A stretch of 64,000 nucleotides of DNA from Alphaproteobacteria bacterium (GTDB taxonomy: Bacteria; Pseudomonadota; Alphaproteobacteria; Bin95): the NCBI GenBank assembly GCA_965205265.1, contig CBDBGH010000003.1:4992001-5056000 (forward strand), written 5' to 3'. Under the pieces are notes generated by a model that saw nothing but the letters and a program-made list of their open reading frames with translations, was not told where the DNA came from and did not search any database. Numbering within the stretch: the stretch's first letter is position 1; each line of letters starts with the position of its first letter. Of the stretch, positions 2 to 62,565 are shown piece by piece. The translations under genes were made by a program, and so were the position numbers.

Positions 2-301
2 ATCGAAGGTCTTCGCGACTGTCTTGTCGGGTCCGGCGGCTGGCGCGCAAGGGAGGCGCCGCCGCAATCCTTCCGGGGCGCATGCGAGCGGGTGGCGCTG
101 TCCCTGCTGGAGGTCGACTATCCCGGCTGGGAGACCGATGACGGGTCGTCCGGAACCGTGAGGGTCGGCCCGGAGAAGGTGGCCGTGGACATCCGGATGA
201 TGTCGGTCGAGGTCGACACGACCTGGTACGACACGGTCAACGGTCTGGAGCAGACGATGCCGCCGGTGGCCGGCGAAGGGGACGACCCGCCCGGCCCGTG
301 A
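2..301 (+). CDS. DUF6878-like protein (5'-truncated by window edge)
   Basis: Frame is open from the window start (IEGLRD...). Contains the DYPGWETDDGSSGTV motif shared with downstream paralogs. Confidence 0.7.
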   Translation: MEGLRDCLVGSGGWRAREAPPQSFRGACERVALSLLEVDYPGWETDDGSSGTVRVGPEKVAVDIRMMSVEVDTTWYDTVNGLEQTMPPVAGEGDDPPGP

Positions 302-346
302 TGCGGCCGATCCCAGGCAATCGCGTGAAAACAGGAGGACAGGGCC

Positions 347-853
347 ATGGCGGCGAGCGAACAGGCGGCAGCCAATCGGGAGGAGAAGCGCAGACTGGTC
401 GAGCACAACACGGCGGTGCTCGGCGCCATTTTCCGGGAATGCGGCATCGGCTCCGTGGATGTGGAGTTCGACGGTTACTCGGACAGCGGAGCGGTGGAGG
501 ACATTACCTTCCTCGGAACCGACGGGCATGTGCTCACCGCCGGTGACGATCTGTTGTCACGGACGGTGGAAGGGATGCAGAAGATCGTATCGAGCCGGGG
601 TGTCCTGAGCCGGACCGAAGATTGCCTGAAGACCCTCGAGGATGCGATCGAGGACTGCGTCATGGATGCGCTGGCGGTGGATTTCCCGGGTTGGGAGGTC
701 GGTACCGGCGCCTGTGGCTCGGTTTCCATCGAGCCGGAGGCGATCTCGGTGAAGATCGATTTGCGATCGGTGGAATACGAGGAGCGGGAATTCACAGCGC
801 AGGCCGCGTCCCTGGATGAGGACAGGCTGCCCGGTCCCTCTCCGGGGGCCTGA
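347..853 (+). CDS. DUF6878-like protein
   Basis: HNTAVL...VEFDGYSDSGAVE...DFPGWEVGTGACG match the family motifs (FDGxGDSG, GWE). AGGAGG RBS. Confidence 0.8.
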   Translation: MAASEQAAANREEKRRLVEHNTAVLGAIFRECGIGSVDVEFDGYSDSGAVEDITFLGTDGHVLTAGDDLLSRTVEGMQKIVSSRGVLSRTEDCLKTLEDAIEDCVMDALAVDFPGWEVGTGACGSVSIEPEAISVKIDLRSVEYEEREFTAQAASLDEDRLPGPSPGA

Positions 854-884
854 CCGGTCCATGGACAGCAGGGAGGGTTGTTCG

Positions 885-1643
885 ATGGAATTGACGGAAG
901 GGGCGCCCGCGAGCGGGCGCGATGACGGCTTCACGCTGTCGATCCCGCTGGAGGCCCCGGCCCAGGACGGGAATCCCGAAACGCTGATCGTGCGGATCGG
1001 CGATGGCATCCGCCGGGGCGATCCGCGCTGGGAGGCGTGCCGACGCATCGCGCGAGCTGTGGCGGCCTCGCCGCTTGTCCGCGAGGCTGTTGCGCCCGGG
1101 ACGGGCGATGGAAGGAAGGAACCCTTCGCCGCCCGGCCCCCGGACCATGCGTCCTCAGCCGGCAGGAATTTCAGTGAGCGGTTCATGACGTCGGTCAGGC
1201 ACAATCTGGCTGTTATCGGCGCCGCCCTGGAGCAATGGGGCATTGCCGCGGTCGAGATGAAGCTGGATGGCTTCGGCGACGAGCGCGCCGTGCAGGACGC
1301 GATCTACATTTCCGCGGATCCGTCACGGCCGGTGCCTGTCGGGACCGACAGTCGGCCTGTGGAGGGGCTTCAGCTGTTCAGGCGGGGAGAGCGCAGGCAA
1401 GCTCCCGCTGCCGCGCTTGCGGATGCGCTGGCCGAGTGCGCCATGTCCATGGTGTGGAATTCCTATCCCTGCTGGGAAACCGGCGACGGGTCGGTGGGTA
1501 TCGTGACCTTCACGCCCTCCGGGGCGCGCGTGGCCATGGGATTCCGCGAAGCCAGCTACGATGTCGTCGCCGAGCGGGAGTTCGAGGTCGAGGCGCGCGC
1601 GGCCCCGCTGGCCGGGCCGGCGGCGGACGGGCCGACGCCGTAG
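885..1643 (+). CDS. DUF6878-like protein with N-terminal extension
   Basis: HNLAVI...LDGFGDE...YPCWETGDGSVG. GGAGG upstream of ATG 885. Confidence 0.75.
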   Translation: MELTEGAPASGRDDGFTLSIPLEAPAQDGNPETLIVRIGDGIRRGDPRWEACRRIARAVAASPLVREAVAPGTGDGRKEPFAARPPDHASSAGRNFSERFMTSVRHNLAVIGAALEQWGIAAVEMKLDGFGDERAVQDAIYISADPSRPVPVGTDSRPVEGLQLFRRGERRQAPAAALADALAECAMSMVWNSYPCWETGDGSVGIVTFTPSGARVAMGFREASYDVVAEREFEVEARAAPLAGPAADGPTP

Positions 1644-1696
1644 CGGGGCAAACCCAGGGAGGGAAGACCGGGATAGTCCCGTGGTTCAGGTACCGT

Positions 1697-2125
1697 TCAT
1701 CTCCCCAATCTTCCCAATCTCCTTTTCAGCTCATTCATCATCTTCTCGTATTTGATTTCCTCCTTGGCGCCAAACACCGCGGATTCCTGGGTGCACTCCG
1801 CACGCTCACCGGCCAGTATCTTTTGCCTGTCTTCCTCGCTGTGCTTCTGCAGGTCCCGTGCGGCCTTGTCGAGCGCATCATCGAATTCATCTCCGGCTTC
1901 CGCCCGGATGCGGGAGACAATCCGTTTTGCATCCTCGTCCGATACGTTCTGGCCTTGGAGCATTCCGTCCCGGATGCAGGGCATGAAGACCGTGTCCAGG
2001 TACTGCTGCTTCAAGAGCGCCACTTCTGCCTTGACGACCTCCGGATTGGTTGCCGGAGTGTCCGTCGTCGAGCACGCTGCGACCGCAAGACCCAGGCTGA
2101 CCAACCCGAGCATCATGAGTTTCAT
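1697..2125 (-). CDS. Putative lipoprotein
   Basis: MKLMMLGLVSLGLAVAAC: hydrophobic signal peptide with lipobox Cys. GGGAG RBS. Lower GC than its neighbours. Confidence 0.7.
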   Translation of the reverse strand: MKLMMLGLVSLGLAVAACSTTDTPATNPEVVKAEVALLKQQYLDTVFMPCIRDGMLQGQNVSDEDAKRIVSRIRAEAGDEFDDALDKAARDLQKHSEEDRQKILAGERAECTQESAVFGAKEEIKYEKMMNELKRRLGRLGR

Positions 2126-2591
2126 GTTGATTCTCCCGTTAACTGCCTTGTGCATTATACATCGTGCCGGGCCTTGTCCGCGCGCGCTTTCGGGCGGCCG
2201 CTCGCCAGTGCCCGCACAAGGAGTGCGGCCTGCCCCAGGTCGTTCCAGGCTTCGGCGCGCGCCACCCGGGCGTCGATCCTGCGACGGATCCGCGTAAACC
2301 GTCTGCATTGCGACGGGCAGGCGTTGAAAGGCTCGCAAGGGAGCGTCCCTTCTTGTTGTAAACAGTTGAGCGTTTTGTTCACAACCGATGGCTGCAAGGG
2401 TCAATCCATCTTTGCATAAGGCCCTTTCTCTTGGCATCGGCCCGGGACGCGACCGGCAGGGGCCGGCCCGCCTGCAGACAAAAAACTGAACCCCGGGCGC
2501 ATGCGCGAGGCAGAGGCGGGTTCAGGGCTTGCGGAGTTTCTTCCGGCCGCCGCCTGTCAATCGGGGTCGGTCGCTGAAAGTTCTTTCGGCA

Positions 2592-3171: not shown

Positions 3172-3660
3172 ATGAGGTATTCGCGCGAGAACAGGCTGGA
3201 AGCGGCCCGCGAGGCGCTTCAGCACAATCTCTCGGTACTGGGTGCGTTTTTCGGCAAGGCCGGTATCGAGACTATCGACATCCCGTTCCGGGCGTCCGGT
3301 GGCAATGTGGTGTTCGAGGACCCGACCGTGACCGGCAAGGCGAAAGCGCCCGAGGTCATGACGGAGATGATCGACGGGTTGCAGGATGTGAGGTGGACCG
3401 GCGCCGGCCTCGAGCGCATCCGGACCCGTCCCCTGGCGCTCGAGGCCGCCCTGCGGGATGCCTGCACCTATGCGGCGGACCTCCGGGACAATAACTGGAA
3501 GGACGGCACCAAGGGGGCGGTCAAATTCTGGGAGGACGGCGTGATCTATCTGGAGATGGAGATCCTCCAGCCGACCAACGTCCGTGAGGAGTATTACCCT
3601 CGCCCGGCCCCGCTGGAGGCGCCCGCGGGTCTTCCCGAGCCCAGGCCGGAGGGCCTGTAG
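3172..3660 (+). CDS. DUF6878-like paralog (diverged)
   Basis: HNLSVLGAFFGKAGIETIDI...IDGLQ...NWKDGTKGAV. Confidence 0.7.
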   Translation: MRYSRENRLEAAREALQHNLSVLGAFFGKAGIETIDIPFRASGGNVVFEDPTVTGKAKAPEVMTEMIDGLQDVRWTGAGLERIRTRPLALEAALRDACTYAADLRDNNWKDGTKGAVKFWEDGVIYLEMEILQPTNVREEYYPRPAPLEAPAGLPEPRPEGL

Positions 3661-3663
3661 GCC

Positions 3664-4185
3664 ATGACGGGCACCGATGACCTGGTGCCGCTCGATGTGG
3701 CGCTGTCGATCACCATCGAGCACAACCTGTCCGTGCTGGGCGCGCATTTTGCGGAGACGGGCCTCACGGGCGTGGAGATGACCTTCGATGGCCATGACGG
3801 CGAGGGTCATATCCAGGAGATCGCCTACCGGACGGGTGGCCCCGACCCGGAGAATGTGCCGGCGGGCACATCCGGGACGGTGATCGAGGGTCTGCAGGAA
3901 GCCGACGAGGCAAGGGACGACGGTTTCACCCCCATGGGCCGGTGCGTTGACGCTGGCCCGATGACGCTCCGGGACGCGCTCGATGAGTGCGGTCTCGCCA
4001 TGCTGGAGCGCTTCGACAGGGACTGGCAGAAGGGCCCGGGCGCCGGGGGCCGGATCCGGATCGATGCGGCGGGAGAGGCAGCCCTGGAGATCGGCGTGCG
4101 CCGGGTGACGGAGTACGAGATGCAATACAGGGCTTCCCCGAAGCCGCTGACGGCTGAAGCGGGGGAAGCCCAGCCGGGTCTGTAG
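3664..4185 (+). CDS. DUF6878-like protein
   Basis: HNLSVL...MTFDGHDGEGHIQEI...IEGLQ...DWQKGPGAGGRI. Confidence 0.75.
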   Translation: MTGTDDLVPLDVALSITIEHNLSVLGAHFAETGLTGVEMTFDGHDGEGHIQEIAYRTGGPDPENVPAGTSGTVIEGLQEADEARDDGFTPMGRCVDAGPMTLRDALDECGLAMLERFDRDWQKGPGAGGRIRIDAAGEAALEIGVRRVTEYEMQYRASPKPLTAEAGEAQPGL

Positions 4186-4232: not shown

Positions 4233-5132
4233 ATGAGTGGGGAGCGCCGTTGGAACTTCGTGGAAGAGCAGTGGATGAGCAGGGCTATCGAGGTGCTGAA
4301 TACCGCGAGGAAAATCCATCGGGGAATCCATGACTATCCGGGAAGCATCCTGACCTCCCTAGATGGAGCATGGGGAGCCGTTCAGTCTCCAATCGGGGAT
4401 TTCGACGCCGCCGGGCAGAGAGCCTTCGTCGACGGGCTGCTTCCCTTGATCTGCCGGGCCAATGACGTCGATTACGACGCCACCGGAAACGGCGATGGGC
4501 GGTCGCTTCAGGTGTGGCGTGCCCTGCAGGAGTCGAAGGCGGGCAGCTTCGATGAAGGGGACGCTGTTTTCTCGAGGACTCTCGACATGGCCTATGCCGA
4601 GCTGGAACGGACGGCGGGACCGGCGGACCGGCATTTCTTCGATGCGTGCCGCCTGAACCCGGATGCGCCGCGGGGATTGCGTGAGGAGGTGGCGATGAAG
4701 AACCTCTCCACGCTGCAGGCGCATCTGGCCCGGGAGGGCGTGACGCGCGCCGATGTGACGATGCTCGGGTTCGACGGGAAATGCGATTTCGGACGCGTGG
4801 GATTTTCGTCGGAACCTCGGGAGAAGGCCCCGGTAGAGGGCTTTCGCATTTGCCGGGAGACGCCGGAAGGCTGGATCCAGGAGGAACTGGAGCCTCTGCC
4901 CCTGCCTTCGGCGGCGGCCAGGGTCGCCATCCATCTGGCCGACATGGCCTATGACAACTGGGCGGATGACGGAGCGACGATCAGGACGGCTATCCGGCCT
5001 GACAGCGTCGAGGCCGGTGTGCGTTGGACCGAGGTCATCGAAGGAAGCGAAACCGGATACCGGGTGGATTCGTCGGCCGGACGCCTGTGGCACGACGAGG
5101 ATGGACCCGAACCCGAAGGCATGGAGCCGTGA
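4233..5132 (+). CDS. Protein with unknown N-domain and C-terminal DUF6878-like domain
   Basis: KNLSTLQAHLAREGV...VEGFR...YDNWADDG in the C-terminal half. Confidence 0.65.
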   Translation: MSGERRWNFVEEQWMSRAIEVLNTARKIHRGIHDYPGSILTSLDGAWGAVQSPIGDFDAAGQRAFVDGLLPLICRANDVDYDATGNGDGRSLQVWRALQESKAGSFDEGDAVFSRTLDMAYAELERTAGPADRHFFDACRLNPDAPRGLREEVAMKNLSTLQAHLAREGVTRADVTMLGFDGKCDFGRVGFSSEPREKAPVEGFRICRETPEGWIQEELEPLPLPSAAARVAIHLADMAYDNWADDGATIRTAIRPDSVEAGVRWTEVIEGSETGYRVDSSAGRLWHDEDGPEPEGMEP

Positions 5133-5301: not shown

Positions 5302-6156
5302 GTGACCCGGAAACTCTATCAGGACACGGAAAGTGCGGCGGTCTATCTGGAAGTGGACGGCGATGTTTTCGACGTGACGTACGAAACGGACGGGACAGCC
5401 CTGACGCTGCTGATCCGGGGATGTCCGTTCGCCCGTCGGCTTGAAGGGCCGGAGGCCGAGGCGCTGCGCGCCCCGGGCGGGCCGCTTTCTCCCGGGAGGG
5501 AAGACACCTGCCTGATCGCCGCCGTCGCGGACGAGGGCGAGGGCCCGGGCAGCCCGTTCGAACTCCATGTCTGGAACGAGCGGGTCGATGACAGGGCGGC
5601 GTTCCTGCTTGGCCTGGACTCGCGGCCTGTCCTGTATGGTCCGTCCTCGCTTGTGCCTCCGGTGGAGGCGGACGGAGCGGAAGTCATTGCCATCGGCGCG
5701 AAACGGCGCCGGGAGGCCGAGATAGCGGACCTCCACAACCTGTCGGTTCTCACCGCCGAGATGGAGCGTCTCGGCATAGAGACCGTCTCGGTCGAGTTCG
5801 ACGGCTATGGAGATGACGGCGAGATCACGGCGGTGAGCTATGCACCCAGGGCCCCGGAAGGGCGCACGATCGAGGGATTCCAGGATGAGGTAACGGATGG
5901 AGCCGGCAATTGGAGTCGCCAGGACGGCGAACCCATGTCGTTCGGGGCCGCGGTCCGGAACCTGGTTTACCGGCATCTCTGGATGAATTACGGGGGATGG
6001 GTCAATGATCTGGGCTCCGGCGGAACGGCGGAGATCACGAAGGAGGGCCTTCGCGTGCATTTCGGCCGCCGGATCAAGAGCGTCGAGTGGGAGCACGGCC
6101 CGCTCCATCGCCCGGCCCCGGCCCCGCTGCAGGGCGGCGCGGGGCCGGGCTTCTGA
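5302..6156 (+). CDS. Protein with unknown N-domain and C-terminal DUF6878-like domain
   Basis: HNLSVL...VEFDGYGDDGEI...YGGWVNDLGSGG. Confidence 0.8.
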   Translation: MTRKLYQDTESAAVYLEVDGDVFDVTYETDGTALTLLIRGCPFARRLEGPEAEALRAPGGPLSPGREDTCLIAAVADEGEGPGSPFELHVWNERVDDRAAFLLGLDSRPVLYGPSSLVPPVEADGAEVIAIGAKRRREAEIADLHNLSVLTAEMERLGIETVSVEFDGYGDDGEITAVSYAPRAPEGRTIEGFQDEVTDGAGNWSRQDGEPMSFGAAVRNLVYRHLWMNYGGWVNDLGSGGTAEITKEGLRVHFGRRIKSVEWEHGPLHRPAPAPLQGGAGPGF

Positions 6157-7942: not shown

Positions 7943-7954
7943 TAGGTGTTGCGT

Positions 7955-11128: not shown

Positions 11129-11129
11129 C

Positions 11130-11564: not shown

Positions 11565-11793
11565 CGCGACCGATGAGAACGGGGTGGACCCACGCCCGGA
11601 CGCGCACGATACTGCGCTTCCGGGCCGCGCCTTGCATGGCTCGGGGGGTGCGGCGCCGGTCGTTGCCACCAAGCCAACGGGGCCGGCGCCGCATCGTTCT
11701 CAGAAGCCCCAGTCTACCCCCTGCCGCAGCCCGGGAACGGCCAACCCGGTCGCCAGGACGTCGCCGCCCTCCGGGAGGCGAAAATCTCAACGC

Positions 11794-11850: not shown

Positions 11851-12359
11851 ATAAACCCGGCCGCGCCTGTCTCACGCTGTTTGTCGTGCGCACCACAAAA
11901 GCGCGCTACGCCAGCAAATATGCGCCCTTTATGATAATCACCGACAGAGCGGTAGCCCGCTGGCGGCGCGGCGGCTGCCGGTCATCGAGTGGCATGGCGA
12001 GGACGGCGCCGATCTCGAGGTGTCCGGCATAGTGAGTCCGCAGCCGTTCGCCGGAGGCGGCTGGCGGCTTGTGGAATTCGGGTATCCGATGCGGCTTGAA
12101 CTGGTGCTGAACAGTCTCGCCGTCCAGCGGCTCGAGACCATGGAAGGGGAGTGGTCCTGGGGCAGCGCCGCTGTCGAGGTGGCCGTGACCGCCGGCGGGC
12201 TGCATGCGTCGGTCGACCGCGAAGTGACGCGGCGCGTTCGCAGTCGCGCCATGACCATGCCCGCAAGGGCGGCTGACGTCATTCCGCCGCCCGGGGCAGG
12301 GGAGCCGTCACCGGGACCGGACTTGTAGCGGCCGGAGTGTCCGGGAACAGGAGACGCGA

Positions 12360-13358
12360 ATGGTGAATGGAGAGGGAAGCGAGTCGATCGCGCCGCCGGA
12401 GGGCCTTCGGACGGCGGTCGCGAAGCACAATCTCGCGGTGCTTCTGAGGCATATGGACGAAGCGGGCCTCGGGAAGGTGGTCGCGCGGTTCGATGCCTGC
12501 TTCGGCGAGGAGTCGGTTTATCAGGTCGGATGCCTGTATGGACCCAGGCAGGCCAAGGGAGTGGCCGACGCCCCGGCTCCCGCGACGTTCGTTGACGGTC
12601 TTGTCGGCCTGGACCGGGACGCCTCCGGCGCCTGGCGGGCGGTTTCGGAACCGGCCAGGCGCTTCGAGACGGCAGTGCGGGAAACCGTCCGGGCGGCGCT
12701 CGACGTGGCCTTCCCGGAGTGGCAATACGGGCCGGGTTCGGAGGGTTCCGTCACATTCGACGGTCTTGAGGCGGACATCGCCTTCGGGATGCGCCGGGAG
12801 GAAGTGGACTGGGGCCATGGCTGGCTGCGCCCGGGCGAGATGGAGGAGATGCCGGCGGTCCGCAGCGATGCCGCGGACGACCGTCTGGCGGAGATGCGGG
12901 CGGTGGCCAACCGGCACAATCTTGCCTTGGTGATCGACGCCATGGGGGACGTGGGGGTGGAGGAGGTGACGATACGGACGCTCCCGCCGCCGACAGGAGG
13001 GAAGGTAGCGAAGATGGATTGGTCTCCGGGCGATGCCGTCGCGGTTTGCGAAACGAAAGCGGTCTCCGGCCTCATCGGCGTGTGTACGGAGTCCGGCGCC
13101 GTGCCGCGGCATCGCGAAGTGATGCCGGGCACCCTCGACCTTGCCCTGCAGATGCTGGCGCAGGACCTGCTGGAGTCGGCCGACGAGATGTGGGAACAGG
13201 GTATCGGCAAGGTCACCATCGATGCGGACGGGGCCCGGATGGAAGTGGAGCGTGTGGAGGCGGTCCATGTGGTGAACGAGGCGACGCTGCCGCCGGCGCG
13301 CCTTGCGGAGAAGGCCCTCGCGGGTCCAGAGGAGGGGGACGGTCCGGCGGGGCTGTGA
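12360..13358 (+). CDS. Tandem two-domain DUF6878-like protein
   Basis: HNLAVL...FPEWQYGPGSEG and a second HNLALV domain. Confidence 0.75.
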   Translation: MVNGEGSESIAPPEGLRTAVAKHNLAVLLRHMDEAGLGKVVARFDACFGEESVYQVGCLYGPRQAKGVADAPAPATFVDGLVGLDRDASGAWRAVSEPARRFETAVRETVRAALDVAFPEWQYGPGSEGSVTFDGLEADIAFGMRREEVDWGHGWLRPGEMEEMPAVRSDAADDRLAEMRAVANRHNLALVIDAMGDVGVEEVTIRTLPPPTGGKVAKMDWSPGDAVAVCETKAVSGLIGVCTESGAVPRHREVMPGTLDLALQMLAQDLLESADEMWEQGIGKVTIDADGARMEVERVEAVHVVNEATLPPARLAEKALAGPEEGDGPAGL

Positions 13359-13398: not shown

Positions 13399-14361
13399 AT
13401 GAGCCACGGAAACGGTGTCGACGTTCCGAGGAAGCTGCTGGAGACCGTAGCCCGCCACAACTTGGCGGTGCTTCAGGCGGTCATGCGCAAGGCGGGCGTG
13501 CAGGAACTCGACATATACTACGACAGCGAGAATGGCCGGAGGGTGGTCGAGAATGCCGTGTGCAACGGCAAAGACGCCTCTTCGGGGCCTATCTTCGAAT
13601 TCGACGTGGAGGGCCTCCAGGCCCTCGAGGAAACGCCGGAGGGCAATGACGAGGAGATGGAGGGTTGGTGGCGTGTGCCTGTCGCCACCATTCCCTTCGT
13701 GGATGCCGTGCGGACGGTCTGCTTCGATCTCGTGAGCACTCAGGATCCGGAATGGGATGCCGGGCTGGGAACGATCGGCTCGGTACGCGTGGGTCTGCAA
13801 AGCGCCACGGTCGTGCGTTACCGTCGGCTTGAGGAGTTTGCCTCCTTCGAGGAGAAGATCGAGGCGCAGGCGGCCGTGCTGCCTGACGTCGAGTCCATCG
13901 GCTCCGATGGCTGGGACGGGCACTGGGCGGCTGAGGTCGAGAGGCAGAATTTCGCCACGGTGCTCGCCTGCATGGCGGAGATGGGAGTTGAGGAGATCCG
14001 GGTCGAATTGACGAAGTTGCCGCCTGGGGCGGGCGTGGCCAGGGATGTGCGCAGCTCGCCGCGCTTCGATGCAGAGGATTGGCCGATGATCGATCAGAGA
14101 GTCGCGCAAGCGGCCGGAGAATCATGGACGGAAAGGCAGCCGCTTGAGACGGCGGTCGTGTCCCTGGTCGAGGAGGAAGTCCAGCGTGCATTCCCCTCTT
14201 GGATAGGCAAGTCGTTTACCGCGCAGGCCACGGTCACGAGCGAAGGGGTTCGTCTCAATATGGAACGGCGCAAGCTTGAGCGCGGGACGTCCTTCCTGCG
14301 GTCCCCGGCGCCGTGTGTAGGGCTCGGGGCGCCGGAAGGGGCCGGACCGGGCCCCGAGTGA
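13399..14361 (+). CDS. Tandem two-domain DUF6878-like protein
   Basis: HNLAVL...VEGLQ...PEWDAGLG and QNFATVL...FPSWIG. Confidence 0.7.
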   Translation: MSHGNGVDVPRKLLETVARHNLAVLQAVMRKAGVQELDIYYDSENGRRVVENAVCNGKDASSGPIFEFDVEGLQALEETPEGNDEEMEGWWRVPVATIPFVDAVRTVCFDLVSTQDPEWDAGLGTIGSVRVGLQSATVVRYRRLEEFASFEEKIEAQAAVLPDVESIGSDGWDGHWAAEVERQNFATVLACMAEMGVEEIRVELTKLPPGAGVARDVRSSPRFDAEDWPMIDQRVAQAAGESWTERQPLETAVVSLVEEEVQRAFPSWIGKSFTAQATVTSEGVRLNMERRKLERGTSFLRSPAPCVGLGAPEGAGPGPE

Positions 14362-14781: not shown

Positions 14782-15293
14782 CATTGCAATCGGATTGTGA
14801 TAGAAATGCGGGCAATCGGGAAACTGCTCGCCGGAGTCGGGAAGCCGTGTCATCCGCCATCCAGATGGCCAGGGAACTGGCAAGGGCGCTGCTCGCCGGG
14901 CAGACGGACAAGGCCGGACGGCCGGCGTTCGACCACGCTGCCCGGGTTGCGGGCCGTGTCGGCAGCGCGGCCGCGCCGCTCGCCTGGCTTCATGATCTGG
15001 TCGAGGATACCGATCTCACGCTGAGAGCCGTCGAGGCCATTTTCGGGGCCGACATGGCCACGGACGTGTGTGCATTGACCCGCAGGGACGGGGAAACCTA
15101 CACGGACTATATCGCGCGGGTCTGTGTCGCCTCCGAAACGGCGCGCCGCGTCAAGCTCGCCGACCTGGAGGACCATCTCGAGCTGGCGGCGGACATTCCT
15201 CCCACTCTGGTGGAGCGTTACAGGAGGGCCTTCGACCGGTTGGAGGACTCCTTCAACGAACATGACAATCTGCCGTCCTACGGGCCGGGTTAG
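14778..15293 (+). CDS. HD-domain protein, small alarmone hydrolase (RelA/SpoT HD)-like
   Basis: GQTDKAGRP..DH..RVA, WLHDLVEDT, VKLADLEDH. Confidence 0.85.
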   Translation: MTLQSDCDRNAGNRETARRSREAVSSAIQMARELARALLAGQTDKAGRPAFDHAARVAGRVGSAAAPLAWLHDLVEDTDLTLRAVEAIFGADMATDVCALTRRDGETYTDYIARVCVASETARRVKLADLEDHLELAADIPPTLVERYRRAFDRLEDSFNEHDNLPSYGPG

Positions 15294-15852: not shown

Positions 15853-16689
15853 TCAGTCGAAGGGGGACGGCTGCGGCAAGGCGTCGGAGTCCGCCTGCCC
15901 TGTCGCCTCCGCGACCAGCGCGTCGAGAGCGTCCCGGTCGTTGCCCTGGGCCGCCGGAAGCGCCGCCACCACGAATGCCGGCGTGCAGAGCGGAAGCAGC
16001 GCCGAGGCAGCCCGCTTCGTCTCCGGGCCGCCCTCGGCCTGGAGGTCGAGGATCTCTACCGTTGGAGCGGACTCCTGCCCGGGGCCGGACCAGCGCAGGC
16101 GCCACATCTCCGGGATCCGGAGCGAGCGGTAGAAGGCGGGCTTGTCTGCCGAGGCGCTGGTGTAATCCACCTCGACGACAAGGTCCGGAAGCTCATGCTT
16201 CCCGAATTCCTTCATCGCCTTTTGGCCTGCAGCCACGGCGGCGCGCCAGCGCAATGCCTTCTCGCCGAAGATGTAGCAGGCGTCAGGCTCTGCCTGCGAT
16301 CGGTCCCGATCCTCATCCGGCCCGATTTCCGGCTCGTTGTCGCCGCCGGGCCGGAGCGTCCAGGAGCCGGCGACGACAACTGGAAGACCGTCAGCGTGGG
16401 CGATCGCCTTGACAAGATCGCCGATGCCCTCGCCGTAATTCTCATGCGGCATCGAGGGCGACATCAACGCGATCAGGCCGGCCTTCGCATCGGCAAACAG
16501 GCGGCCGGCATCGCCCCGCCATTCGTCCATGCGGTCGAGCAACGCCGCGATGTCCGAAGGCGTGCCGTGCAGCACCAGGGTCGGCGATCCCAATGCCCCC
16601 GCCACGGTCTCCGCCCATACTGACGGGCCCGCGCAAGCGGGAACCGCCGAACCGCCTCCCGAAGCGAAGGGCAAATCGATCACGTTCAT
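15853..16689 (-). CDS. Uma2 (DUF820) family PD-(D/E)XK endonuclease
   Basis: LMSPSMPHE, AEPDACY, PDLVVEVD, FYRSLRIPEMW. Confidence 0.85.
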   Translation of the reverse strand: MNVIDLPFASGGGSAVPACAGPSVWAETVAGALGSPTLVLHGTPSDIAALLDRMDEWRGDAGRLFADAKAGLIALMSPSMPHENYGEGIGDLVKAIAHADGLPVVVAGSWTLRPGGDNEPEIGPDEDRDRSQAEPDACYIFGEKALRWRAAVAAGQKAMKEFGKHELPDLVVEVDYTSASADKPAFYRSLRIPEMWRLRWSGPGQESAPTVEILDLQAEGGPETKRAASALLPLCTPAFVVAALPAAQGNDRDALDALVAEATGQADSDALPQPSPFD

Positions 16690-25246: not shown

Positions 25247-25546
25247 TTATTGCGGCCCCTGTGCGGGCGCTTCCAGGTTCTCCCGGAGAGCGTCGACGCG
25301 GTCTTCGGCGTCCTCGCGTTCCTCCTGGGCCCGGTCGAGATCGTCGCGCGCGGCCGCGAGTCTGGCTTCGGCTTCCCGAAGGTCGGCGTTTTCCTCGTCT
25401 TCCTCGGCTTCGGCCTCGGCAAGTTGCTCTTCGACGTCGGCGAGGCTCTCCTCGGCCTCGGCCAGGGCGTTTTCGGCCTCGGCTTCCCTGAGTTCGGCGT
25501 TGGCCAGGTCGGATTCGGCTTGCTCGAGTTCGGTTCGGGACGTCAC
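25247..25546 (-). CDS. Small acidic coiled-coil protein
   Basis: Heptad-like EAE..L repeats, highly acidic. Confidence 0.6.
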   Translation of the reverse strand: MTSRTELEQAESDLANAELREAEAENALAEAEESLADVEEQLAEAEAEEDEENADLREAEARLAAARDDLDRAQEEREDAEDRVDALRENLEAPAQGPQ

Positions 25547-44469: not shown

Positions 44470-45860
44470 ATGAGTGAACCTGTGACGCGCGAGCGGAATC
44501 TCACGGCACGGCTGGTGCATGCGGTCGGAGCCGCCATCGACCGCGAGGCGGTCAAGAACGTCTCCGCGGCACTCGAGGCCGGGGCGGACCCGAACGGCGT
44601 CCATATCCTCGAATCCGGCGTCAGCAGGACGCCGCTGACGGCGGCGGTCGACTTCGCGAGCGTTCCCGCCGCGGTCAGTGTGCTTCTCGATGCCGGCGCC
44701 GATCCCGATCAGCCGGGACAGGACGGGGCGGCTCCCCTGCACATGGCTGCCCGCGACCCGGAAGGGACCGCTGCGGCGGCTGTCCTGTTGCTGAGGGCCG
44801 GCGCCGGTGTTGCTGTCCGGGACAGCAAGGGAGCCACGCCCCTTCACCATGCGTGCGGCGAAGGCAGCGAAGCGGTGGTGGCCGTGCTCCTTGCGTCCGG
44901 GGCGGATCCGGAAGCGAGGGACAACCGGGGCAGGACGCCGCTGCATCTGGCCTGCAGCGGCGGAGGCGTCGGGGCGCGGCTGCTTCTCGATACAGGGGCC
45001 GCTCCCGACCCCGTCGACGAAAGCGGACGGACTCCCCTCCACGATGCGGCGCTGGGAGGCTGGAGAGAGGCGGTAGAGATCCTGCTGGAGTTCGATGCCG
45101 ACCCGAACCGCCGGGCCGGACCGGCGGACCGGTCGCGCACGCCGCTGCATTTCCTGGCGGAGGGACGGGGCGGCGACATGGCCGCCCATGCCCTGCTCGC
45201 CGCCGGGGCGGATCCCGCGGCGACCGATGACAAGGGCGATCTGGCCCTGCATCTGGCGGCGCGGACGGGAGCGGACAGGGTGGCGCTGGCGCTCCTGGCG
45301 AGGAAGCATCCGCGGAAGTCCTCGACGGGGAAGGCCGCACGCCCTTGGCGATCGCGGTGGAAGAGGGCAATGGCGACATAGCCTCCTTCCTGGTGCATGC
45401 GGGAGCCGACCCGAACACGCGGTCCGAGTCGGACTGGACCGCCCTGTTCGGCGCCATAGCGGCCGACAGGGATTACGTGGTCGGGAAGCTTCTGGAAGCG
45501 GGCGCCGATCCCAACCAGAGGTTCGGCGAGGAAGCGGCACTGCACCAGGCCGTGGGCGCCCCGGTCGATATGCGGCCGGAGGAATGCGCCGCGGAGATGG
45601 TGAGGGTGCTTCTCGACGCCGGTGCGGATGCGAATGCGCGTGACGGTGCGGGCGTGACGCCGCTGCACCATGCTGCCCACCAGGGCCGGGTGGACTGCTT
45701 GAAACTCCTGCTCGCCGCCGGGGCGGATCCCGAGATGGCGGACAATGCCGGCCGGCGTCCGGCGGATGAGGCCGCGCACGGTCCGGCCCACGACGAGATA
45801 TCCGGCCTTCTTGCACAGGCGGCCCGAATTCGGGCCGGGTCGCCGGATCCCGGCATGTAG
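44470..45860 (+). pseudogene. Ankyrin-repeat gene with a 1-nt frameshift near 45303 (or a sequencing error)
   Basis: The ANK register continues as SAEVLDGEGRTPLAIAVEEG in the second frame. Confidence 0.8.
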
Positions 45861-45878: not shown

Positions 45879-46802
45879 ATGGTCGATTTCCGGGATATGC
45901 GGGGGAACGAAATACGCCGGTTCCTGGCGGATGGCGGCAGGATCGATGCCAGGGACGACATATTCGGCGAGACGCTCCTGCATGTCGCCGTTCGGCTGGA
46001 CGATGAGGGCCTTGTCAGGGAACTGCTCGCCGCCGGGGCCGATCCCAATGAAGGAGACGGGAAGGGGAGGACACCGCTCTTTGCGGCGGCCCACATCGGG
46101 GACGCGTCCGTGGTGAAGGCCCTGCTGGAAGGCGGGGCCCGGCCGGACGAGCGCGATGTGGAATATACGACCGCGCTGCATCTGGCGGCGCAGGGAGGCA
46201 GTGTCGCCAACATCGGGCTTCTGCTCGCCGCCGGCGCCGATCCGGAAGCGCGGGACGAGTTGGGCGCAACGCCATTGCATCTGGGGGCCCTGAACGGTCG
46301 GCTCGACAGCGTGCAGGCGCTTCTCGGGGGAGGGGCCGATGCGAGCGCACGCACGAGGGCCGGCGGCGAAACGGCGCTTCACTGGGCGATGACGGTCGAG
46401 GGAGGCCGGGGTGAGGAGATTGTTGCCGCTCTTCTTGGGGCGGGAGCGGATCCGAATACGCGGAACGGGATGGAAGAGACGCCGCTTCACTGGGCGGCGT
46501 CGGGCCTCGAGGAAGGCGGAAGGATCGCGGCGCTTCTGGAAGCCGGGGCCGACCCCGGCGCGCGCAACAAGTGGGAGGCGACTCCCCTGCATGAGGCCGC
46601 CCAGGCGCGCAAGGCGGACGCCGTGCGGATCCTCCTCGCCGCGGGCGCCGATCCCGATGCCACGGACGACGAGGGTAAGACGCCCATGGAGTGGGCGATG
46701 CCGGTCGTGGGCGACAATTCGGAAGTGATGGGCCTGCTGGAGAAAGCGGCGGCAGACCGCAGAGCCGCCGCCGGACTTCCGGAGCCCGTGTCGGGTGGCT
46801 GA
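45879..46802 (+). CDS. Ankyrin-repeat protein
   Basis: ANK units. Confidence 0.95.
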   Translation: MVDFRDMRGNEIRRFLADGGRIDARDDIFGETLLHVAVRLDDEGLVRELLAAGADPNEGDGKGRTPLFAAAHIGDASVVKALLEGGARPDERDVEYTTALHLAAQGGSVANIGLLLAAGADPEARDELGATPLHLGALNGRLDSVQALLGGGADASARTRAGGETALHWAMTVEGGRGEEIVAALLGAGADPNTRNGMEETPLHWAASGLEEGGRIAALLEAGADPGARNKWEATPLHEAAQARKADAVRILLAAGADPDATDDEGKTPMEWAMPVVGDNSEVMGLLEKAAADRRAAAGLPEPVSGG

Positions 46803-47317: not shown

Positions 47318-47824
47318 TCAGGTCTGGAGTCCCGGTTCCGGGAGGTCCTCGCCGACAGGAGCGGGGGTTGCCTGCCAGGATGCGCTGTCCGCCTGGATCG
47401 ACCGTTGGCCGATATCGATGTCGGCGGAGAGGCCCGGTCCGGAGCGGCTGATGGTGATCCGCCCCTCGGATCCGGCTTCCGCGTCCCAGCCGCCGAAGTC
47501 CGCCTGCAGCATGGCGTCGCCCATCATGGCGAGGGCCTGGTCCAGGCGCATGGGCGGACAGGCCTCGCGGGTGGCGTCCTGGTAATAGGATCCGACGACG
47601 CGCTGGAGGCCGGTAACGGTAATGCCCCTGGCATCCTCGACATCGAGTTGGAGGTCGCCGGCGTCCGCCGTGTGGCCGAGATGCGTGAGTGCGATGACAT
47701 GCGCGTCCATGCGCCCGTCGAATTCGACCTCCATCGTGTCGATGGCGAATTCCTCGAACAGCTGGTCGAGCACCGAAAGGTTGTGGGCGCTCGCTGTGCG
47801 CATTTGTTGCTCGCCTGTCGGCAT
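47318..47824 (-). CDS. DUF6878-like protein
   Basis: HNLSVL...VEFDG...VTGLQ...DFGGWDAEAGSEG. GGAGGAG RBS. Confidence 0.8.
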   Translation of the reverse strand: MPTGEQQMRTASAHNLSVLDQLFEEFAIDTMEVEFDGRMDAHVIALTHLGHTADAGDLQLDVEDARGITVTGLQRVVGSYYQDATREACPPMRLDQALAMMGDAMLQADFGGWDAEAGSEGRITISRSGPGLSADIDIGQRSIQADSASWQATPAPVGEDLPEPGLQT

Positions 47825-51215: not shown

Positions 51216-52286
51216 ATGGACAGCTACATCGAGAATGGCGAGCGGTGGTCGGTCCTGCGTTTCGACGCCGACGGGGTCGAGGAACTGATGGCCCATGCAC
51301 GGTCGTGCGACCGCCACAGCATGGGTTTCAGCGAACGCGAGCGCGTCTATGGCAAGGGGGTCTGGGACCCCCAGCCCGACGAGGAGGAGAGGGCGCCGAC
51401 GACACTGGTTCTGGTCAAGAACGAAGGCATCTACCTGGTGTCGAGCGGGGTGCCGTATATGCCTGATCCGGACGATCCGAAATGTGCGAAGGTCGTCTAT
51501 GCCCAGGGATACGACCCGACCAAGGCGGACCGGATGCAGGTCTGGGATGCCGCCCGGGCGGCGGTGGGCGGTGCCGACTTCTCGGAGTATTTCGATCTGG
51601 ACACCTTCGAGGCGCCGCTGGCCGCCGCCCGGACGAAGGCGGGCCGCGGCATGGTCGAGATGCATGTCTCGGAAACCGGCATCAAGATGATGACGCTTGC
51701 GCCGGCCGGCGCGGCCCCGCCCCGGCCGGCCGCAGCCGAAAGCGCTCCGGTTCAGGCGCAGGCGAAACCGGAGGAAACGGTCGCGGAGCTGTATCGGACC
51801 TCCCGCGAGAAGTTTGCGGCCTGGGCCGCCTGGCTCCTGTTGGCTTCGCCGAGCCCGCTGGTGCAGTGGCAGGGTGACGATTTCGTCCGGGACGCCGGGG
51901 TGCTGGCCCTGAAGGCTTCACAGGGAGAGCGGGTCACGCAGAAGGCGGTGACGGATCTGCTCCGCACATACCGGCGGCTCGGGAAAGAGCAGGACAGCGC
52001 CATGGACCCGCTCTCCAGCGCGCGGCGGGCCGCAATGTGGTTCCTGAGGACACTGGACCCCAAGAAGGACGACATGGAGTGCCCACACAACATGGTTGCC
52101 GCGACGTCGCGGGCCGCATTGATCGGCAACGCGAACGCTGCCGCGATGCCATCGGTGGACCAGCGCCGCGAATATCATGACTGGCTGTACAAGACCATGA
52201 ACGATGCGGCGAACTCGATCAGGGAGACAGCAGGCAAGCGGGCGCGGCAGGACGATGCCCCGTCTCCCGACGGGCCGGGCCTCTGA
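51216..52286 (+). CDS. DUF3085-like domain protein with C-terminal extension
   Basis: LVLVKNEGIYL...YAQGYDP...GGADFSE. Confidence 0.75.
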   Translation: MDSYIENGERWSVLRFDADGVEELMAHARSCDRHSMGFSERERVYGKGVWDPQPDEEERAPTTLVLVKNEGIYLVSSGVPYMPDPDDPKCAKVVYAQGYDPTKADRMQVWDAARAAVGGADFSEYFDLDTFEAPLAAARTKAGRGMVEMHVSETGIKMMTLAPAGAAPPRPAAAESAPVQAQAKPEETVAELYRTSREKFAAWAAWLLLASPSPLVQWQGDDFVRDAGVLALKASQGERVTQKAVTDLLRTYRRLGKEQDSAMDPLSSARRAAMWFLRTLDPKKDDMECPHNMVAATSRAALIGNANAAAMPSVDQRREYHDWLYKTMNDAANSIRETAGKRARQDDAPSPDGPGL

Positions 52287-52308: not shown

Positions 52309-52626
52309 TCAGGGGGATGGACTGGGGTCGTCGGGTTCCTCCTCCCGGGAGGAGAGGTCGTCAATACGTTCGAGATCGACTTCCTCGCTTGCCATCCAGG
52401 TGTCGTACTGGAGCTGCAGGCGGCCCCAGTAGTCGGATGACATGCCGAGCGCCTTGCCCAGGCGAACGGAGGTCTCCGGGGATATCGCCCGCCGCCCGCG
52501 TATGATCTCGTTTATGCGGCCGGGAGGCACATCCATCGTCTTCGCCAGACGGTATTGCGTGATACCGAGTTCCTCAAGGATTTCCGCGAGATGCTGTCCG
52601 GGGTGAATTTGGTAAGGGGGTGTCAT
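52309..52626 (-). CDS. higA: HigA-family antitoxin (orphan)
   Basis: IHPGQHL...GITQYRLAK...RINEIIRGRRAIS...YW..LQ..YD. Confidence 0.9.
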   Translation of the reverse strand: MTPPYQIHPGQHLAEILEELGITQYRLAKTMDVPPGRINEIIRGRRAISPETSVRLGKALGMSSDYWGRLQLQYDTWMASEEVDLERIDDLSSREEEPDDPSPSP

Positions 52627-52838: not shown

Positions 52839-53777
52839 TCAGACCCCGGGGCCGGGCTCGTCCCCTGCGTCGTCGAGCGTGAGGTCCCTGTGGGAGGCAA
52901 GCGCGACCGGAACCGGGCCGGCATCGGTGTCGATCCGGAACTCGGCGGCCAGCTCCCAGGCCCGGGGATCTTCGGGAAAACAGCAGGGATCGGCGCCGGC
53001 GCCGAAGGGCGGGCCGCCCTCGAGAAAGAGCAGGCGTCCGTCGGCCAGACGCATGAAATCCGCCGTAAAGCTCCTGCTGTCGCGGGGCCAGTGCCGATCC
53101 GCCCCGGGCGGATAGACGATGTCCCCTTCCGGCAACTGTTCGGAAAGCCGGCAGGAAAGGTTCACGGCCTCCGTGAGGTCCGTGCGGACCCGGGCCCCGT
53201 CGGGCAGGTCGCGCTGCGGATAGTAGCTGGAGACCCCGCGAGGCCGCCCGTCGAGCATGAAGACGCGATACTCGACCGGATAGCCGTCGACGAGGTCGGC
53301 CTGGACCCAGGGGCGGCGCCAGACGGTCACGCCTTCTCCCGGATATTCGAACAGCAGCTCGAAGGCCCGCGGGTCGTCGACCGTGAACCCGTCGAGAAAG
53401 CGCTCGGACCATTCCGGACGTCCCCGCGAAAGGTGGAGCTTCACGTCCATCGGGGCGCACATGTCCCAGCGCAGCATGGTTCGGGGCTGCTTGGCATTCT
53501 CGATGGCGGAGAAAAAGCGCCTGATCTCCTCGACCTGCCCGTCGTCCGGTTCCTCCCAGTTCAGGAGGGATTCGATGTCTCCCGTGACCACAGGCTCCGC
53601 GGGAACATGGTCGATGCCGGCACGCTCGCAGGCCTCGATCCAGGCGCCGAGCGACACGAGCCGGAAGCCGTGGGCGTCCTTCCAGGCGTTGCGCGGCGGA
53701 TTGCGCCGCGCCTCCTCAAGCCGGGCCTCTATGGCCTCCATCGGAAGGCGCTTCGGCTTTCGCTCACTGTCGCTCAT
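52839..53777 (-). CDS. ATP-grasp fold protein (Cdc123/R2K-like)
   Basis: RRPW, EYRVF..G....SSYY, FTADF, FLEG.P, DPCCF. Confidence 0.65.
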   Translation of the reverse strand: MSDSERKPKRLPMEAIEARLEEARRNPPRNAWKDAHGFRLVSLGAWIEACERAGIDHVPAEPVVTGDIESLLNWEEPDDGQVEEIRRFFSAIENAKQPRTMLRWDMCAPMDVKLHLSRGRPEWSERFLDGFTVDDPRAFELLFEYPGEGVTVWRRPWVQADLVDGYPVEYRVFMLDGRPRGVSSYYPQRDLPDGARVRTDLTEAVNLSCRLSEQLPEGDIVYPPGADRHWPRDSRSFTADFMRLADGRLLFLEGGPPFGAGADPCCFPEDPRAWELAAEFRIDTDAGPVPVALASHRDLTLDDAGDEPGPGV

Positions 53778-56173: not shown

Positions 56174-56177
56174 CGGG

Positions 56178-60894: not shown

Positions 60895-60967
60895 CTGTCG
60901 TCCTCTGTCTCGGTGTTGGACCAGAACGTCCCTTGCGACGCTAAAACGCTTGTCACCCTCATAAATC

Positions 60968-60996: not shown

Positions 60997-61065
60997 CCCG
61001 CCGGCCGTGTGGTGCGATTTGTTGTTTTTTGTCATGGTGTGCTAGGATGCATCCGCGCTGGAAAG

Positions 61066-61178
61066 CCTTCAGGTCATGACGGCGCCGGGCGATATTGAAG
61101 GGCATTGTGATTCATGAGCCGGTCTGCTGATCGGCGATGGTTTCACAACCGGAGCGGATGCTCCGGTCTCATTGATGT
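61066..61178 (+). CRISPR. One-spacer CRISPR-like mini-array (degenerate repeat, spacer, repeat)
   Basis: Repeat 2 (61143-61178) TCACAACCGGAGCGGATGCTCCGGTCTCATTGATGT has the I-G hairpin plus CTCATTGA. Repeat 1 keeps the handle ATTGAAGG (61094-61101). Spacer 61102-61142. Confidence 0.75.
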
Positions 61179-61180
61179 GT

Positions 61181-61210
61181 CGGCCCGGGAGAATGCGGGC
61201 TCCCGGGCCG
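61181..61210 (+). terminator. Hairpin closing the mini-array transcript
   Basis: 11-bp stem CGGCCCGGGAG / CTCCCGGGCCG with a weak T-tract after it. Confidence 0.55.
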
Positions 61211-61411
61211 CGGTTGTTCTGTGTGATAGCCGCTCCGGATTTCGTGGGGAACCCGGTCCCGATATTGTGGAATAGCCGTTTCAGAAACTGCAGTGCCTTG
61301 TGTTTCAGCTGACACCGGAATTCGCATGGCGGATTTCCGGGCCGGAGTCGACGCCAATTCCCGCTCGGTAGTGGAGACGAGGGTCGTCCCGTGTTATGAG
61401 AAGATGTGCCC

Positions 61412-61534
61412 GTGACCTTCCACACCGATGTGCTCCGCGAGCCGCGGAAGCGGCTGTGGGAGATGCTGGGCGGCACGCCGCCGGGCTTCGTCCTTTACGG
61501 AGGCACGGCCCCGGCATTGAGGCGGCTGGGGTAA
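61412..61534 (+). pseudogene. N-terminal remnant of an AbiEii-type toxin
   Basis: VTFHTDVLREPRKRLWEMLGGTPPGFVLYGGTAPALRRLG* contains the FVLYGGTA signature. Confidence 0.7.
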
Positions 61535-61539
61535 TCAGG

Positions 61540-62565
61540 ATGCGCGACAAACCGATTGGCGCGATCTGGCGGCCGGTGCGGGATCTGGCTCCTGAGCATC
61601 GCGGCTTTTCGCATGAGCCCGCCCGGCAGGCGGCTCGCCGCTGGCAGGAGAGCAGGAAGAAGCTCGAGGACCCGGAGATCGACCGGTCCTCCATGGATGT
61701 GTGGCTCCGGTCGCAGAGACGGGCCTTTGCCATCGAGACCGGCCAGATCGAGGGCCTTTATCTGTTGCGCCGGGGCGTGACCGAGACCCTGATAGCCGAA
61801 GGCTTCGACAACGTCCGGGGGGCCCATTCGGCAGGCGACATTGACGATGACACCATCAAGGGGCTGCTACAGGATCAGGAGACAGCCCTTGAGATGATGT
61901 TCGCGCATGTCAGGGAAGAGCGCCCGCTGACGACGTCGGCGATCAAGGAGTGGCACGCGCTCCTGACGCGGCACCAGGACACGGCAACGGGCATCGACCC
62001 GTTCGGGAAGAAAATCGAGATACCGCTGCGCCGGGGCCAGTGGAAAATACGGTCGAACAATCCCCGCCGGCATGACGGGATCATCCACGAATACTGTCCG
62101 CCGGAGCAGGTGGAAACGGAGATGGAGCGTTTCCTGAAATTCCACGAGGAACACGCTGGCCTGAACCTTGCGCCGGAGACGGAAGCTGCCTGGCTACACC
62201 ACGAATTCGTGCGCATCCACCCGTTTCAGGACGGCAATGGCCGTATATCGCGGCTGCTGATGGCTTACGCCTATGCCAGGGCAGGTGAGTTCCCGCCCGT
62301 CATTCCGGCGGAAAGGAAGGATGACTATATCGATGCCCTCGATGCCGCGGATGAAGGAAACTTCCCGGCGCTGGTCGAGTATCTGGGCGATCTGGCGGCA
62401 GGCCGCTCAAGGGCGGCGGCGCTTCGGGCAGAAGGCATCGTGGCCGGGCGTACGCAGTACCGTCACGGCAATGGCGGCATCACCTCGAAGGGCACTTACC
62501 GTTCACTTGAGGCCCTGGGCAGTGACTGGGAACCGCCGTCGCCGTCGCCGTTCGACGATGATTGA
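61540..62565 (+). CDS. Fic-family protein
   Basis: AIETGQIEG, HPFQDGNGRISR. Confidence 0.9.
   Translation: MRDKPIGAIWRPVRDLAPEHRGFSHEPARQAARRWQESRKKLEDPEIDRSSMDVWLRSQRRAFAIETGQIEGLYLLRRGVTETLIAEGFDNVRGAHSAGDIDDDTIKGLLQDQETALEMMFAHVREERPLTTSAIKEWHALLTRHQDTATGIDPFGKKIEIPLRRGQWKIRSNNPRRHDGIIHEYCPPEQVETEMERFLKFHEEHAGLNLAPETEAAWLHHEFVRIHPFQDGNGRISRLLMAYAYARAGEFPPVIPAERKDDYIDALDAADEGNFPALVEYLGDLAAGRSRAAALRAEGIVAGRTQYRHGNGGITSKGTYRSLEALGSDWEPPSPSPFDDD

Follow-up and report, generated by a model that had tools for sequence, protein, structure and literature searches.

Proteins of many families encoded in one accessory region of an alphaproteobacterial genome (5.7 Mb, high in guanine plus cytosine, GC) end in the same kind of short, acidic tail rich in Pro and Gly. 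The stretch analysed here, the window, comprises 64,000 nucleotides (G000:C3:4,992,001-5,056,000) of the contig C3, which is 5.46 Mb long with 68% GC; the other contigs, C1 and C2, measure 193 kb and 43 kb. The tail, a feature under selection as protein sequence, is restricted to C-termini and to a single compositional compartment of the genome. As judged from profile matches, a type IVB (Dot/Icm, I-type) secretion system shares this compartment with the tailed genes, and we propose that the tail may be the recruitment signal for that system. We put the probability of this reading at about 0.45, because every link leading from the tail to export had to be inferred.

Genes were called with a codon log-odds caller trained on the long open reading frames (ORFs) of this genome with high GC at third codon positions, which gave 4964, 177 and 44 genes on the three contigs; 67 of the called genes overlap the window. 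Under a strict rule a protein was counted as tailed if its last eight residues held at least two Pro and no Arg or Lys. By this rule 26 of the 67 window genes are tailed, compared with 297 of the 5118 genes outside the window. The enrichment extends far past the window and fills a stretch of C3 with low GC and low codon score. In the tail region, C3:4.80-5.305 Mb (about 0.5 Mb), 124 of the 513 genes pass, compared with 199/4672 elsewhere (odds ratio 7.2, Fisher p = 1e-46), and for a PxP terminus the contrast is 50/513 to 28/4672 (odds ratio 17.9, p = 6e-32). The wider compartment, C3:4.75-5.30 Mb, has a GC content of 0.66-0.67 and a codon score of 0.24-0.29, whereas GC is about 0.685 and the codon score higher elsewhere. 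An earlier, sequence-only reading of the window had described the tail and named a GC-matched comparison as a check on it. All 27 C-termini which it quoted are present at the ends of called window genes, and the comparison came out in its favour: within the region's interquartile GC band, 67 of 257 region genes pass the strict rule (31 with a PxP terminus), against 47 of 1320 genes outside the accessory region (3.6%; 7 with a PxP terminus). The plasmids of the same genome, at 65-66% GC, have 8/177 (C1) and 2/44 (C2) tailed genes, and only 3.4% of the internal eight-residue windows of the window proteins pass.

The tail has a defined positional profile. The frequency of Pro at positions -1 and -3 is 0.21 and 0.22 in the region, compared with 0.08 and 0.07 elsewhere; Gly is found at -2 and -4, Asp and Glu at -5 to -11, and Arg and Lys are depleted over about 12 residues. 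The motif LP[EQ]P lies within the last 14 residues of 20/513 region proteins and of 4/4672 proteins elsewhere, and the numbers of tails with PSP are 33 in the region and 12 elsewhere, those with PEP 43 and 24. Pro is the final residue of 110/513 region proteins (354/4672 elsewhere). Among the 124 strict tails 64 end in Pro and 60 do not, and all have their final Pro at a distance of 1-7 residues from the C-terminus. On plasmid C1, the ending PSPFD or PSPFG is seen in one short ORF and two Uma2 proteins (C1:21675-22427, 62753-62977 and 64309-65061). As the C1 Uma2 proteins share the PSPF(D) ending of the Uma2 and Fic proteins of the region, this particular ending is partly a trait of the Uma2 family and not of the region alone.

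These properties belong to the protein and not to the underlying DNA. No common nucleotide element was detected in the 30 nt before and 60 nt after the stop codons of all 67 window genes, and an Rfam scan of the window gave no family at the gathering score. The in-frame tails contain P 0.27, R 0.018, E 0.10 and D 0.085, whereas the in-frame translation just 3' of the stop gives P 0.13, R 0.14, E 0.03 and D 0.034. Because the composition past the stops is the opposite, Arg-rich and poor in acids, the tails are not run-on GC-rich sequence. Tail Pro uses all four codons, and stop-codon usage is that of the rest of the genome. A tail encoded by a DNA repeat, such as an attC-like site, a repetitive extragenic palindrome or a terminator, was ruled out by the lack of shared sequence and by the use of four Pro codons.

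The tail was originally ascribed to about 30 unrelated cargo proteins. Its breadth stood and proved larger across the region, where at least 26 BLAST clusters and 38 singletons, hence at least 64 sequence groups, hold a tailed member; the independence of the carriers within the window did not stand. Of the 27 quoted proteins, 11 are DUF6878 or DUF6878-like, 7 ankyrin, 3 pentapeptide and 6 singles. Since they fall in few families, 'about 30 unrelated' makes the window carriers look more independent than they are and falls short of the breadth seen across the region. A broader rule, which also takes GPx and xPG motifs, selects 134 region proteins, and a Pfam scan of these identified 27 pentapeptide, 14 ankyrin, 13 DUF6878, 4 Uma2 and 2 Fic proteins; HipA, Macro+NADAR, DUF3085, DUF2958, DciA, RNase_T and Cas2 are represented by single carriers, and many have no Pfam match. 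Several BLAST clusters are themselves concentrated in the region, with 46 pentapeptide members against 1 outside, 22 DUF6878 members against 0, and 20 ankyrin members plus 5 just to the right of the region. The DUF3085 protein found only itself in a homologue search, and many tailed genes stand in tight same-strand arrays.

The carriers look like soluble, acidic substrates of a non-Sec route, judging by their predicted features. Segments resembling transmembrane helices occur in 6.5% of them, compared with 19-25% in the comparison sets, and an N-terminal hydrophobic stretch in 2.4%, compared with 13-15%. Their net charge per residue is -0.056 (-0.008 in the comparison), and that of the last 20 residues is -2.3 (about 0). 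The transposase clusters contain zero tailed members. In the window the transposases, Cas proteins, ClpS and DgkA lack the tail, as the sequence-only reading had claimed, and the tail-free proteins also include a helicase with DEAD and UvrD matches. The window's type I CRISPR-Cas genes (positions 53981-60738; Cas_GSU0054, Cas_GSU0053 and a Cas3-like helicase) are all tail-free; a Cas2 elsewhere in the accessory region is tailed according to the scan of 134 proteins.

By comparison of homologues, the tail is judged to belong to the element rather than to the protein family. Tail-free homologues, which the sequence-only reading had proposed to seek elsewhere, do exist: in the DUF6878 genes of Sphingopyxis pMC4 (typed MPF_T) and Salipiger pTPRO7, which have ParB, ArdC-like, DUF736 and strawberry-notch genes as neighbours, nothing follows the domain (last residues NERYTATESYxHxF). 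A profile of the 22 DUF6878 proteins of this genome was searched against 1.84 billion representatives, and 149 of the listed matches were checked, of which 129 are not our own. Among the 30 best of these, 13 pass the strict rule and 22 have Pro in the last eight residues, compared with 3 strict tails among the 99 lower-ranked ones, in a ranking that leans slightly to tailed proteins because the profile contained tail columns; the homologues that retain the tail are the nearest ones, from metagenomes. Paralogues within the genome at 17-35% identity still align on the xPxP end, and a homologue at 78% identity keeps the end DRLPSPSPGD. DUF6878 was not found in 40 relatives searched (16 of the same genus), and single-protein scans with P0032 and P0009 against genome contigs and with P0025 against metagenome contigs found no relative. 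The model of the 168-amino-acid (aa) DUF6878 protein at window positions 347-853 has a mean predicted local distance difference test score (pLDDT) of 90; it is confident over residues 1-139, which form a long N-terminal helix plus strands, and residues 140-168 are modelled as coil with pLDDT 65-71. A fold search of this model against the PDB returned no match at E <= 0.001, and a literature search on DUF6878 found no paper.

The sequence-only reading had suggested looking for a type IV secretion system and a coupling protein on the replicon, and both are encoded on the same contig. DotH/IcmK (E = 1e-41) and DotI/IcmL (E = 1e-42) are located at C3:4.757-4.770 Mb, together with a TrbI-domain/DotG-like protein adjoining DotH and a 1022-aa VirB4-like ATPase with weak VirB4/TraC matches; the VirB4 profile PF03135 gave no match in the genome, whose VirB4-type ATPases are this protein and the TraC of an F-type module. 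DotD (E = 2e-22) follows at 4.789 Mb. The block at C3:4.925-4.936 Mb, 56-67 kb before the window, encodes DotA/TraY (TIGR04346, 258 bits, cut-off 100), a 1163-aa DotL-like coupling protein with TraG-D_C and TrwB_AAD_bind domains (best NCBIfam match TrbC_conju) and a 591-aa DotM-like protein (PF23127 DotM_C, E = 4e-29; NF033890, 90 bits; IcmP/DotM in the PDB, E = 1e-11). The DotM-like gene is directly upstream of the coupling-protein gene, and the pair precedes the window by 62-67 kb. The neighbourhood is reminiscent of I-type plasmids, with a DnaG primase, a topoisomerase, two TcpQ-domain proteins and secretin/PilO-like genes.

The DotM-like protein offers a possible receptor. The dotM gene is described as lying upstream of dotL throughout type IVB systems, and Legionella DotM binds acidic C-terminal peptides, a binding which is abolished by neutralisation with Lys and which needs R196/R197, R217 and R314/R315 (PMC5802825). 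According to the same source, DotM may have co-evolved to bind other tails in other species. In the phmmer alignment to 6exa_A, R279 of the present protein corresponds to R217, and R391/R392 to R314/R315, the numbering being converted with a chain-to-protein offset of 145 derived from the ranges of 6sz9_B and 6exa_A. In a search of 5.8 billion proteins, the two nearest DotM homologues (72% and 60% identity) are encoded on ENA contigs of 302,850 and 188,107 bases, and another close one on an NCBI contig of 138,020 bases; tailed DUF6878 representatives also come from a contig of 302,850 bases (P0024, P0025, P0028, P0032 and P0046) and from one of 188,107 bases (P0009, P0018 and P0052). Among 401 class members searched, 28 genomes have a match, of which the present DotM-like protein is the most divergent, and in a plasmid collection it has only six distant matches, all from Pseudomonas. 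At two JGI loci around a DotM homologue (query P0156) an acidic, Pro-containing end is seen only on the small gene upstream of DotM, so that these loci say little. A complex prediction for residues 240-591 of the DotM-like protein with the 168-aa DUF6878 protein, run without controls, scored 0.00, which speaks neither for nor against binding.

On the proposed mechanism, the tail would be a short, disordered C-terminal peptide with acids at about -5 to -11, Pro at -3 and -1, Gly or small residues between them, often in the form LPEPxP, and without Arg or Lys. The DotL-DotM coupling complex would recognise this peptide, with DotM or another part of the complex binding it, and would thereby select protein substrates, which would then be exported into a recipient bacterium or a host cell. 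The original claim of a translocation signal is thus supported in part, by the machinery, by the tail-free homologues elsewhere and by the retention of the tail in related elements; this support is circumstantial throughout.

Several points weigh against export by this route. The DotM-like protein and the coupling protein score below the NCBIfam equivalog cut-offs (90 against 230 bits and 355 against 800 bits), and the position of R196/R197 falls beyond the aligned stretch of the former. The parts identified may not make up a full system, or the system could serve for DNA conjugation alone; the searches covered DotA, DotD, DotG, DotH, DotI, DotL, DotM and VirB4-type ATPases, with the 1022-aa protein as a weak candidate for DotO/IcmB. 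The DnaG-type primase beside the coupling protein, an analogue of the I-type substrate Sog, has no tail. To our knowledge no type IV signal is proline-rich, and the Legionella E-block is a Glu stretch located some 10-17 positions before the C-terminus, whereas here one to three acids precede a Pro/Gly end. A function within the producer is expected of several carriers, among them the HTH/HigA-like antitoxin, HipA, Cas2, DciA and the Uma2 nucleases. The tail may have been inherited once each in the pentapeptide, ankyrin and DUF6878 families, which would leave the number of independent gains far below 124. The placing of DotM homologues and tailed DUF6878 genes on the same molecules is taken from equal base counts only, and the tail columns of the DUF6878 profile, mentioned above, belong on this side as well.

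What else could the tail do? It could be a cap that protects these strongly acidic proteins, many of them repeat proteins, from degradation or keeps them soluble and free of aggregation, without any role in export, and that spread as the genes of the element evolved together. In E. coli non-polar C-termini destabilise proteins while polar or charged ones protect them, and the tail is indeed poor in hydrophobic and basic residues, ends in Pro in just over half of the strict cases (64/124) and is carried by proteins with intracellular roles such as the HTH antitoxin, HipA and Cas2. However, soluble acidic proteins elsewhere in the genome and on the plasmids do without it (199/4672, 8/177 and 2/44), so that its confinement is left unexplained, composition alone does not account for the terminal PxP and LPEP motifs, and the co-occurrence with the same DotM lineage on other contigs finds no place in this account, which we regard as unlikely. 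We consider it less likely still that the tail docks another shared partner, either a chaperone or adaptor in the producer or, in the target cell, a proline-recognising module or a proline-directed kinase. Short C-terminal linear motifs often act as docking sites, many tails read Px[ST]P, the PSP and PEP excesses fit, and bacteria acting on eukaryotic cells typically have ankyrin and Fic proteins; on the other hand, no candidate partner was identified. Since a partner in the target cell would still need an export route, this possibility overlaps with recruitment to the type IVB system rather than replacing it.

An action at the ribosome, where a C-terminal Pro would slow release and so tune termination, coupling in tandem arrays or tagging by transfer-messenger RNA (tmRNA), is improbable. 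It would agree with the excess of final Pro and with the tight same-strand arrays, and C-terminal Pro promotes SsrA tagging in E. coli. However, 60 of the 124 strict tails end in another residue, the conserved features, including acidity and the absence of Arg and Lys, reach back 8-12 residues, and the stop codons are used as elsewhere. A reader of the tail other than the type IVB system would be available in the neighbouring F-type conjugative module at C3:4712507-4737038, which looks complete, with a TrbI-domain protein, TraC, TraU, TraN, TraH, TraG_N, a TrwB-type coupling protein, a TrwC relaxase and two tandem integrases. Its GC of 0.693 is unlike that of the tail compartment, though, and its pieces at 82-92% identity (C3:2.565-2.582 and 3.262-3.266 Mb) have no tail-rich surroundings (3/38 and 2/49 genes per 50-kb bin), which makes this system a very improbable reader. 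Finally, at 68% GC stop codons are rare, and frames could run into Pro/Gly-coding sequence; three window positives (7410-7640, 14371-14781 and 25638-25841) are indeed short, low-scoring ORFs that may not be genes. That the tail as a whole is such a by-product of GC or gene calling is hardly tenable: the composition past the stops and the GC-matched control largely refute it, and paralogues that are only 17-35% identical, like homologues of other origin, have kept the tail.

The window genes with a tail are listed below by window position and strand. Pfam confirmed the tailed DUF6878, ankyrin, pentapeptide, Uma2, DUF3085 and HTH_3 proteins, and its HD and R2K ATP-grasp matches are weak.

2..301, plus strand: 3' part of a DUF6878 gene (P0008), ends GEGDDPPGP
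347..853, plus strand: DUF6878 protein of 168 aa, ends DRLPGPSPGA, within the part modelled as coil
885..1643, plus strand: DUF6878 protein, ends AADGPTP
3172..3660, plus strand: DUF6878-like protein (profile match P0047), ends LPEPRPEGL
3664..4185, plus strand: DUF6878 protein, ends GEAQPGL
4233..5132, plus strand: DUF6878-like protein, ends GPEPEGMEP
5302..6156, plus strand: DUF6878 protein, ends GGAGPGF
12020..12328, plus strand: short ORF of 102 aa with a low coding score, ends EPSPGPDL
12360..13358, plus strand: two-domain DUF6878-like protein, ends EGDGPAGL
13399..14361, plus strand: two-domain DUF6878-like protein, ends EGAGPGPE
14847..15293, plus strand: weak HD_4 match below the Pfam cut-off, ends LPSYGPG
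15853..16575, minus strand: Uma2 nuclease-like protein, ends ALPQPSPFD
23281..23976, plus strand: ankyrin-repeat protein, ends ERPAPTPA
25247..25546, minus strand: 99-aa protein without a Pfam match, ends EAPAQGPQ
27737..28960, minus strand: ankyrin-repeat protein, ends APPSTAEP
30310..31074, minus strand: pentapeptide plus DUF7007 protein, ends GLPEPSPA
31177..32124, minus strand: pentapeptide-repeat protein, ends SAEPEAFS
32365..33225, plus strand: ankyrin-cluster protein, ends LSAPGPG
34661..35362, minus strand: pentapeptide-cluster protein, ends AGPEAPAF
42625..43479, plus strand: ankyrin-cluster protein, ends AAPEPGP
43760..44422, plus strand: ankyrin-cluster protein with a weak tail, ends GRCGPEA
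45345..45860, plus strand: ankyrin-cluster protein overlapping the preceding ankyrin ORF, ends GSPDPGM
45879..46802, plus strand: ankyrin-cluster protein, ends GLPEPVSGG
47318..47773, minus strand: DUF6878-like protein (P0033), ends DLPEPGLQT
51216..52286, plus strand: DUF3085 protein, ends APSPDGPGL
52309..52626, minus strand: HTH_3 (HigA-like) protein, ends PDDPSPSP
52839..53741, minus strand: weak R2K ATP-grasp match, ends GDEPGPGV
61540..62565, plus strand: 'Fic' protein (label of the sequence-only reading), ends PPSPSPFDDD
63899..64000, minus strand: 3' end of a two-domain DUF6878 gene (P0003; 343 aa, continues past the window), ends DDAPGPG

The overlapping ORFs at 44482-45381 and 45345-45860, both of the ankyrin cluster, look like one frameshifted gene, with the tail on the second piece only.

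The accessory region has further contents of its own. A 28-tRNA array covering most amino acids is located at C3:5094894-5101696, about 39-46 kb past the end of the window, and a two-piece tmRNA gene at C3:5292698-5293015. Housekeeping-like genes are present for sigma-70, GyrB, DnaG primase, topoisomerase, RecJ, RecQ, RecD2 and a class II ribonucleotide reductase, and the region also carries Cas9. A three-gene element resembling an insertion sequence (window positions 7943-11946, about 4.0-4.1 kb) has at least 15 near-identical copies on C3, at least 8 of them in the accessory region. Large repeats are found on both sides: C3:1-27098 recurs ahead of the region at 4632568-4659093 with 99.995% identity, C3:36590-61081 recurs after it at 5407582-5432139, and C3:5432428-5463552 forms an inverted repeat with 3774960-3804820. 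The approximately 750 kb between the repeats may be inserted near 27-37 kb in only some molecules, or the assembly may have taken a wrong path. The 7% 'contamination' figure may likewise be due to these self-repeats of C3.

If the tail is an export signal, a simple sequence rule would name more than 100 candidate type IVB substrates beyond the well-studied intracellular pathogens, DotM-type receptors would, in line with a proposal made by the authors of the DotM structure, recognise tails of another kind, and large mobile elements would deliver many proteins, and not just DNA, to other cells. It is conceivable, although doubtful, that a free-living, high-GC proteobacterium has, in a mobile or accessory region measuring at least 0.5 Mb, a Dot/Icm-like system combined with more than 100 substrates bearing an undescribed 'acidic-PxP-COOH' signal. 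Repeat proteins resembling DNA mimics, nucleases, parts of toxin-antitoxin systems and ADP-ribose-processing enzymes make up most of these candidate substrates, and such a system may therefore inject a protein arsenal; this arsenal would enter recipient bacteria ahead of or instead of DNA to disarm their defences, and as a candidate substrate set it would rank with the largest known outside the Legionella group. Should the export reading fail, the occurrence of a position-specific C-terminal motif in at least 64 sequence groups of one compartment would still call for an explanation.

Among known C-terminal signals, the PEP-CTERM/exosortase system shares with the tail a Pro-Glu-Pro near the C-terminus (the 43 region tails with PEP). 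In PEP-CTERM proteins, however, a transmembrane helix and a basic cluster follow the PEP, and an N-terminal signal peptide is present. Here the chain ends 1-7 residues after the last Pro, Arg and Lys are absent and hydrophobic N-termini are as rare as given above, and identity with PEP-CTERM was therefore ruled out. The VirB/D4 (type IVA) signal is likewise C-terminal and unstructured, but it is positively charged, whereas Arg and Lys are depleted here. A literature search, judged from its search results alone, found no description of a proline-rich type IV signal.

I-type conjugation is closer. In both cases an apparatus related to Dot/Icm is present on a mobile element, and element-encoded proteins are moved to recipients, or, for the tailed proteins, are proposed to be. 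ColIb-P9 passes on hundreds of SogL primase molecules in a DNA-independent manner, and the listed substrates of conjugation systems also include FicT toxins (PMC8406263). The cargo found here, with DNA-mimic-like pentapeptide proteins, Macro/NADAR, DUF3085 and Fic proteins, would suit early action in a recipient. As for differences, the available text of PMC8406263 gives no common C-terminal peptide as known for the I-type substrates; in the present genome the primase is tail-free, and no PF03432 relaxase was found.

The closest parallel is the Dot/Icm E-block. Both signals are C-terminal, lie within the last 30 residues or so, are unstructured (here according to the model), are net acidic and lack basic residues; both are carried by many unrelated soluble proteins of a non-Sec kind, and in both cases the DotM gene stands upstream of the coupling gene, with equivalents of R217, R314 and R315 kept. 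The differences concern the signal and its host. The tail has Pro at -1 and -3, Gly or small residues and few acids, and the Glu run that was looked for is not a feature of it; the host has a high-GC 5.7-Mb genome and is not an intracellular organism of the Legionellales type. Because the Glu run is lacking, the tail, if it is such a signal, is to be placed as a variant C-terminal signal outside the E-block class.

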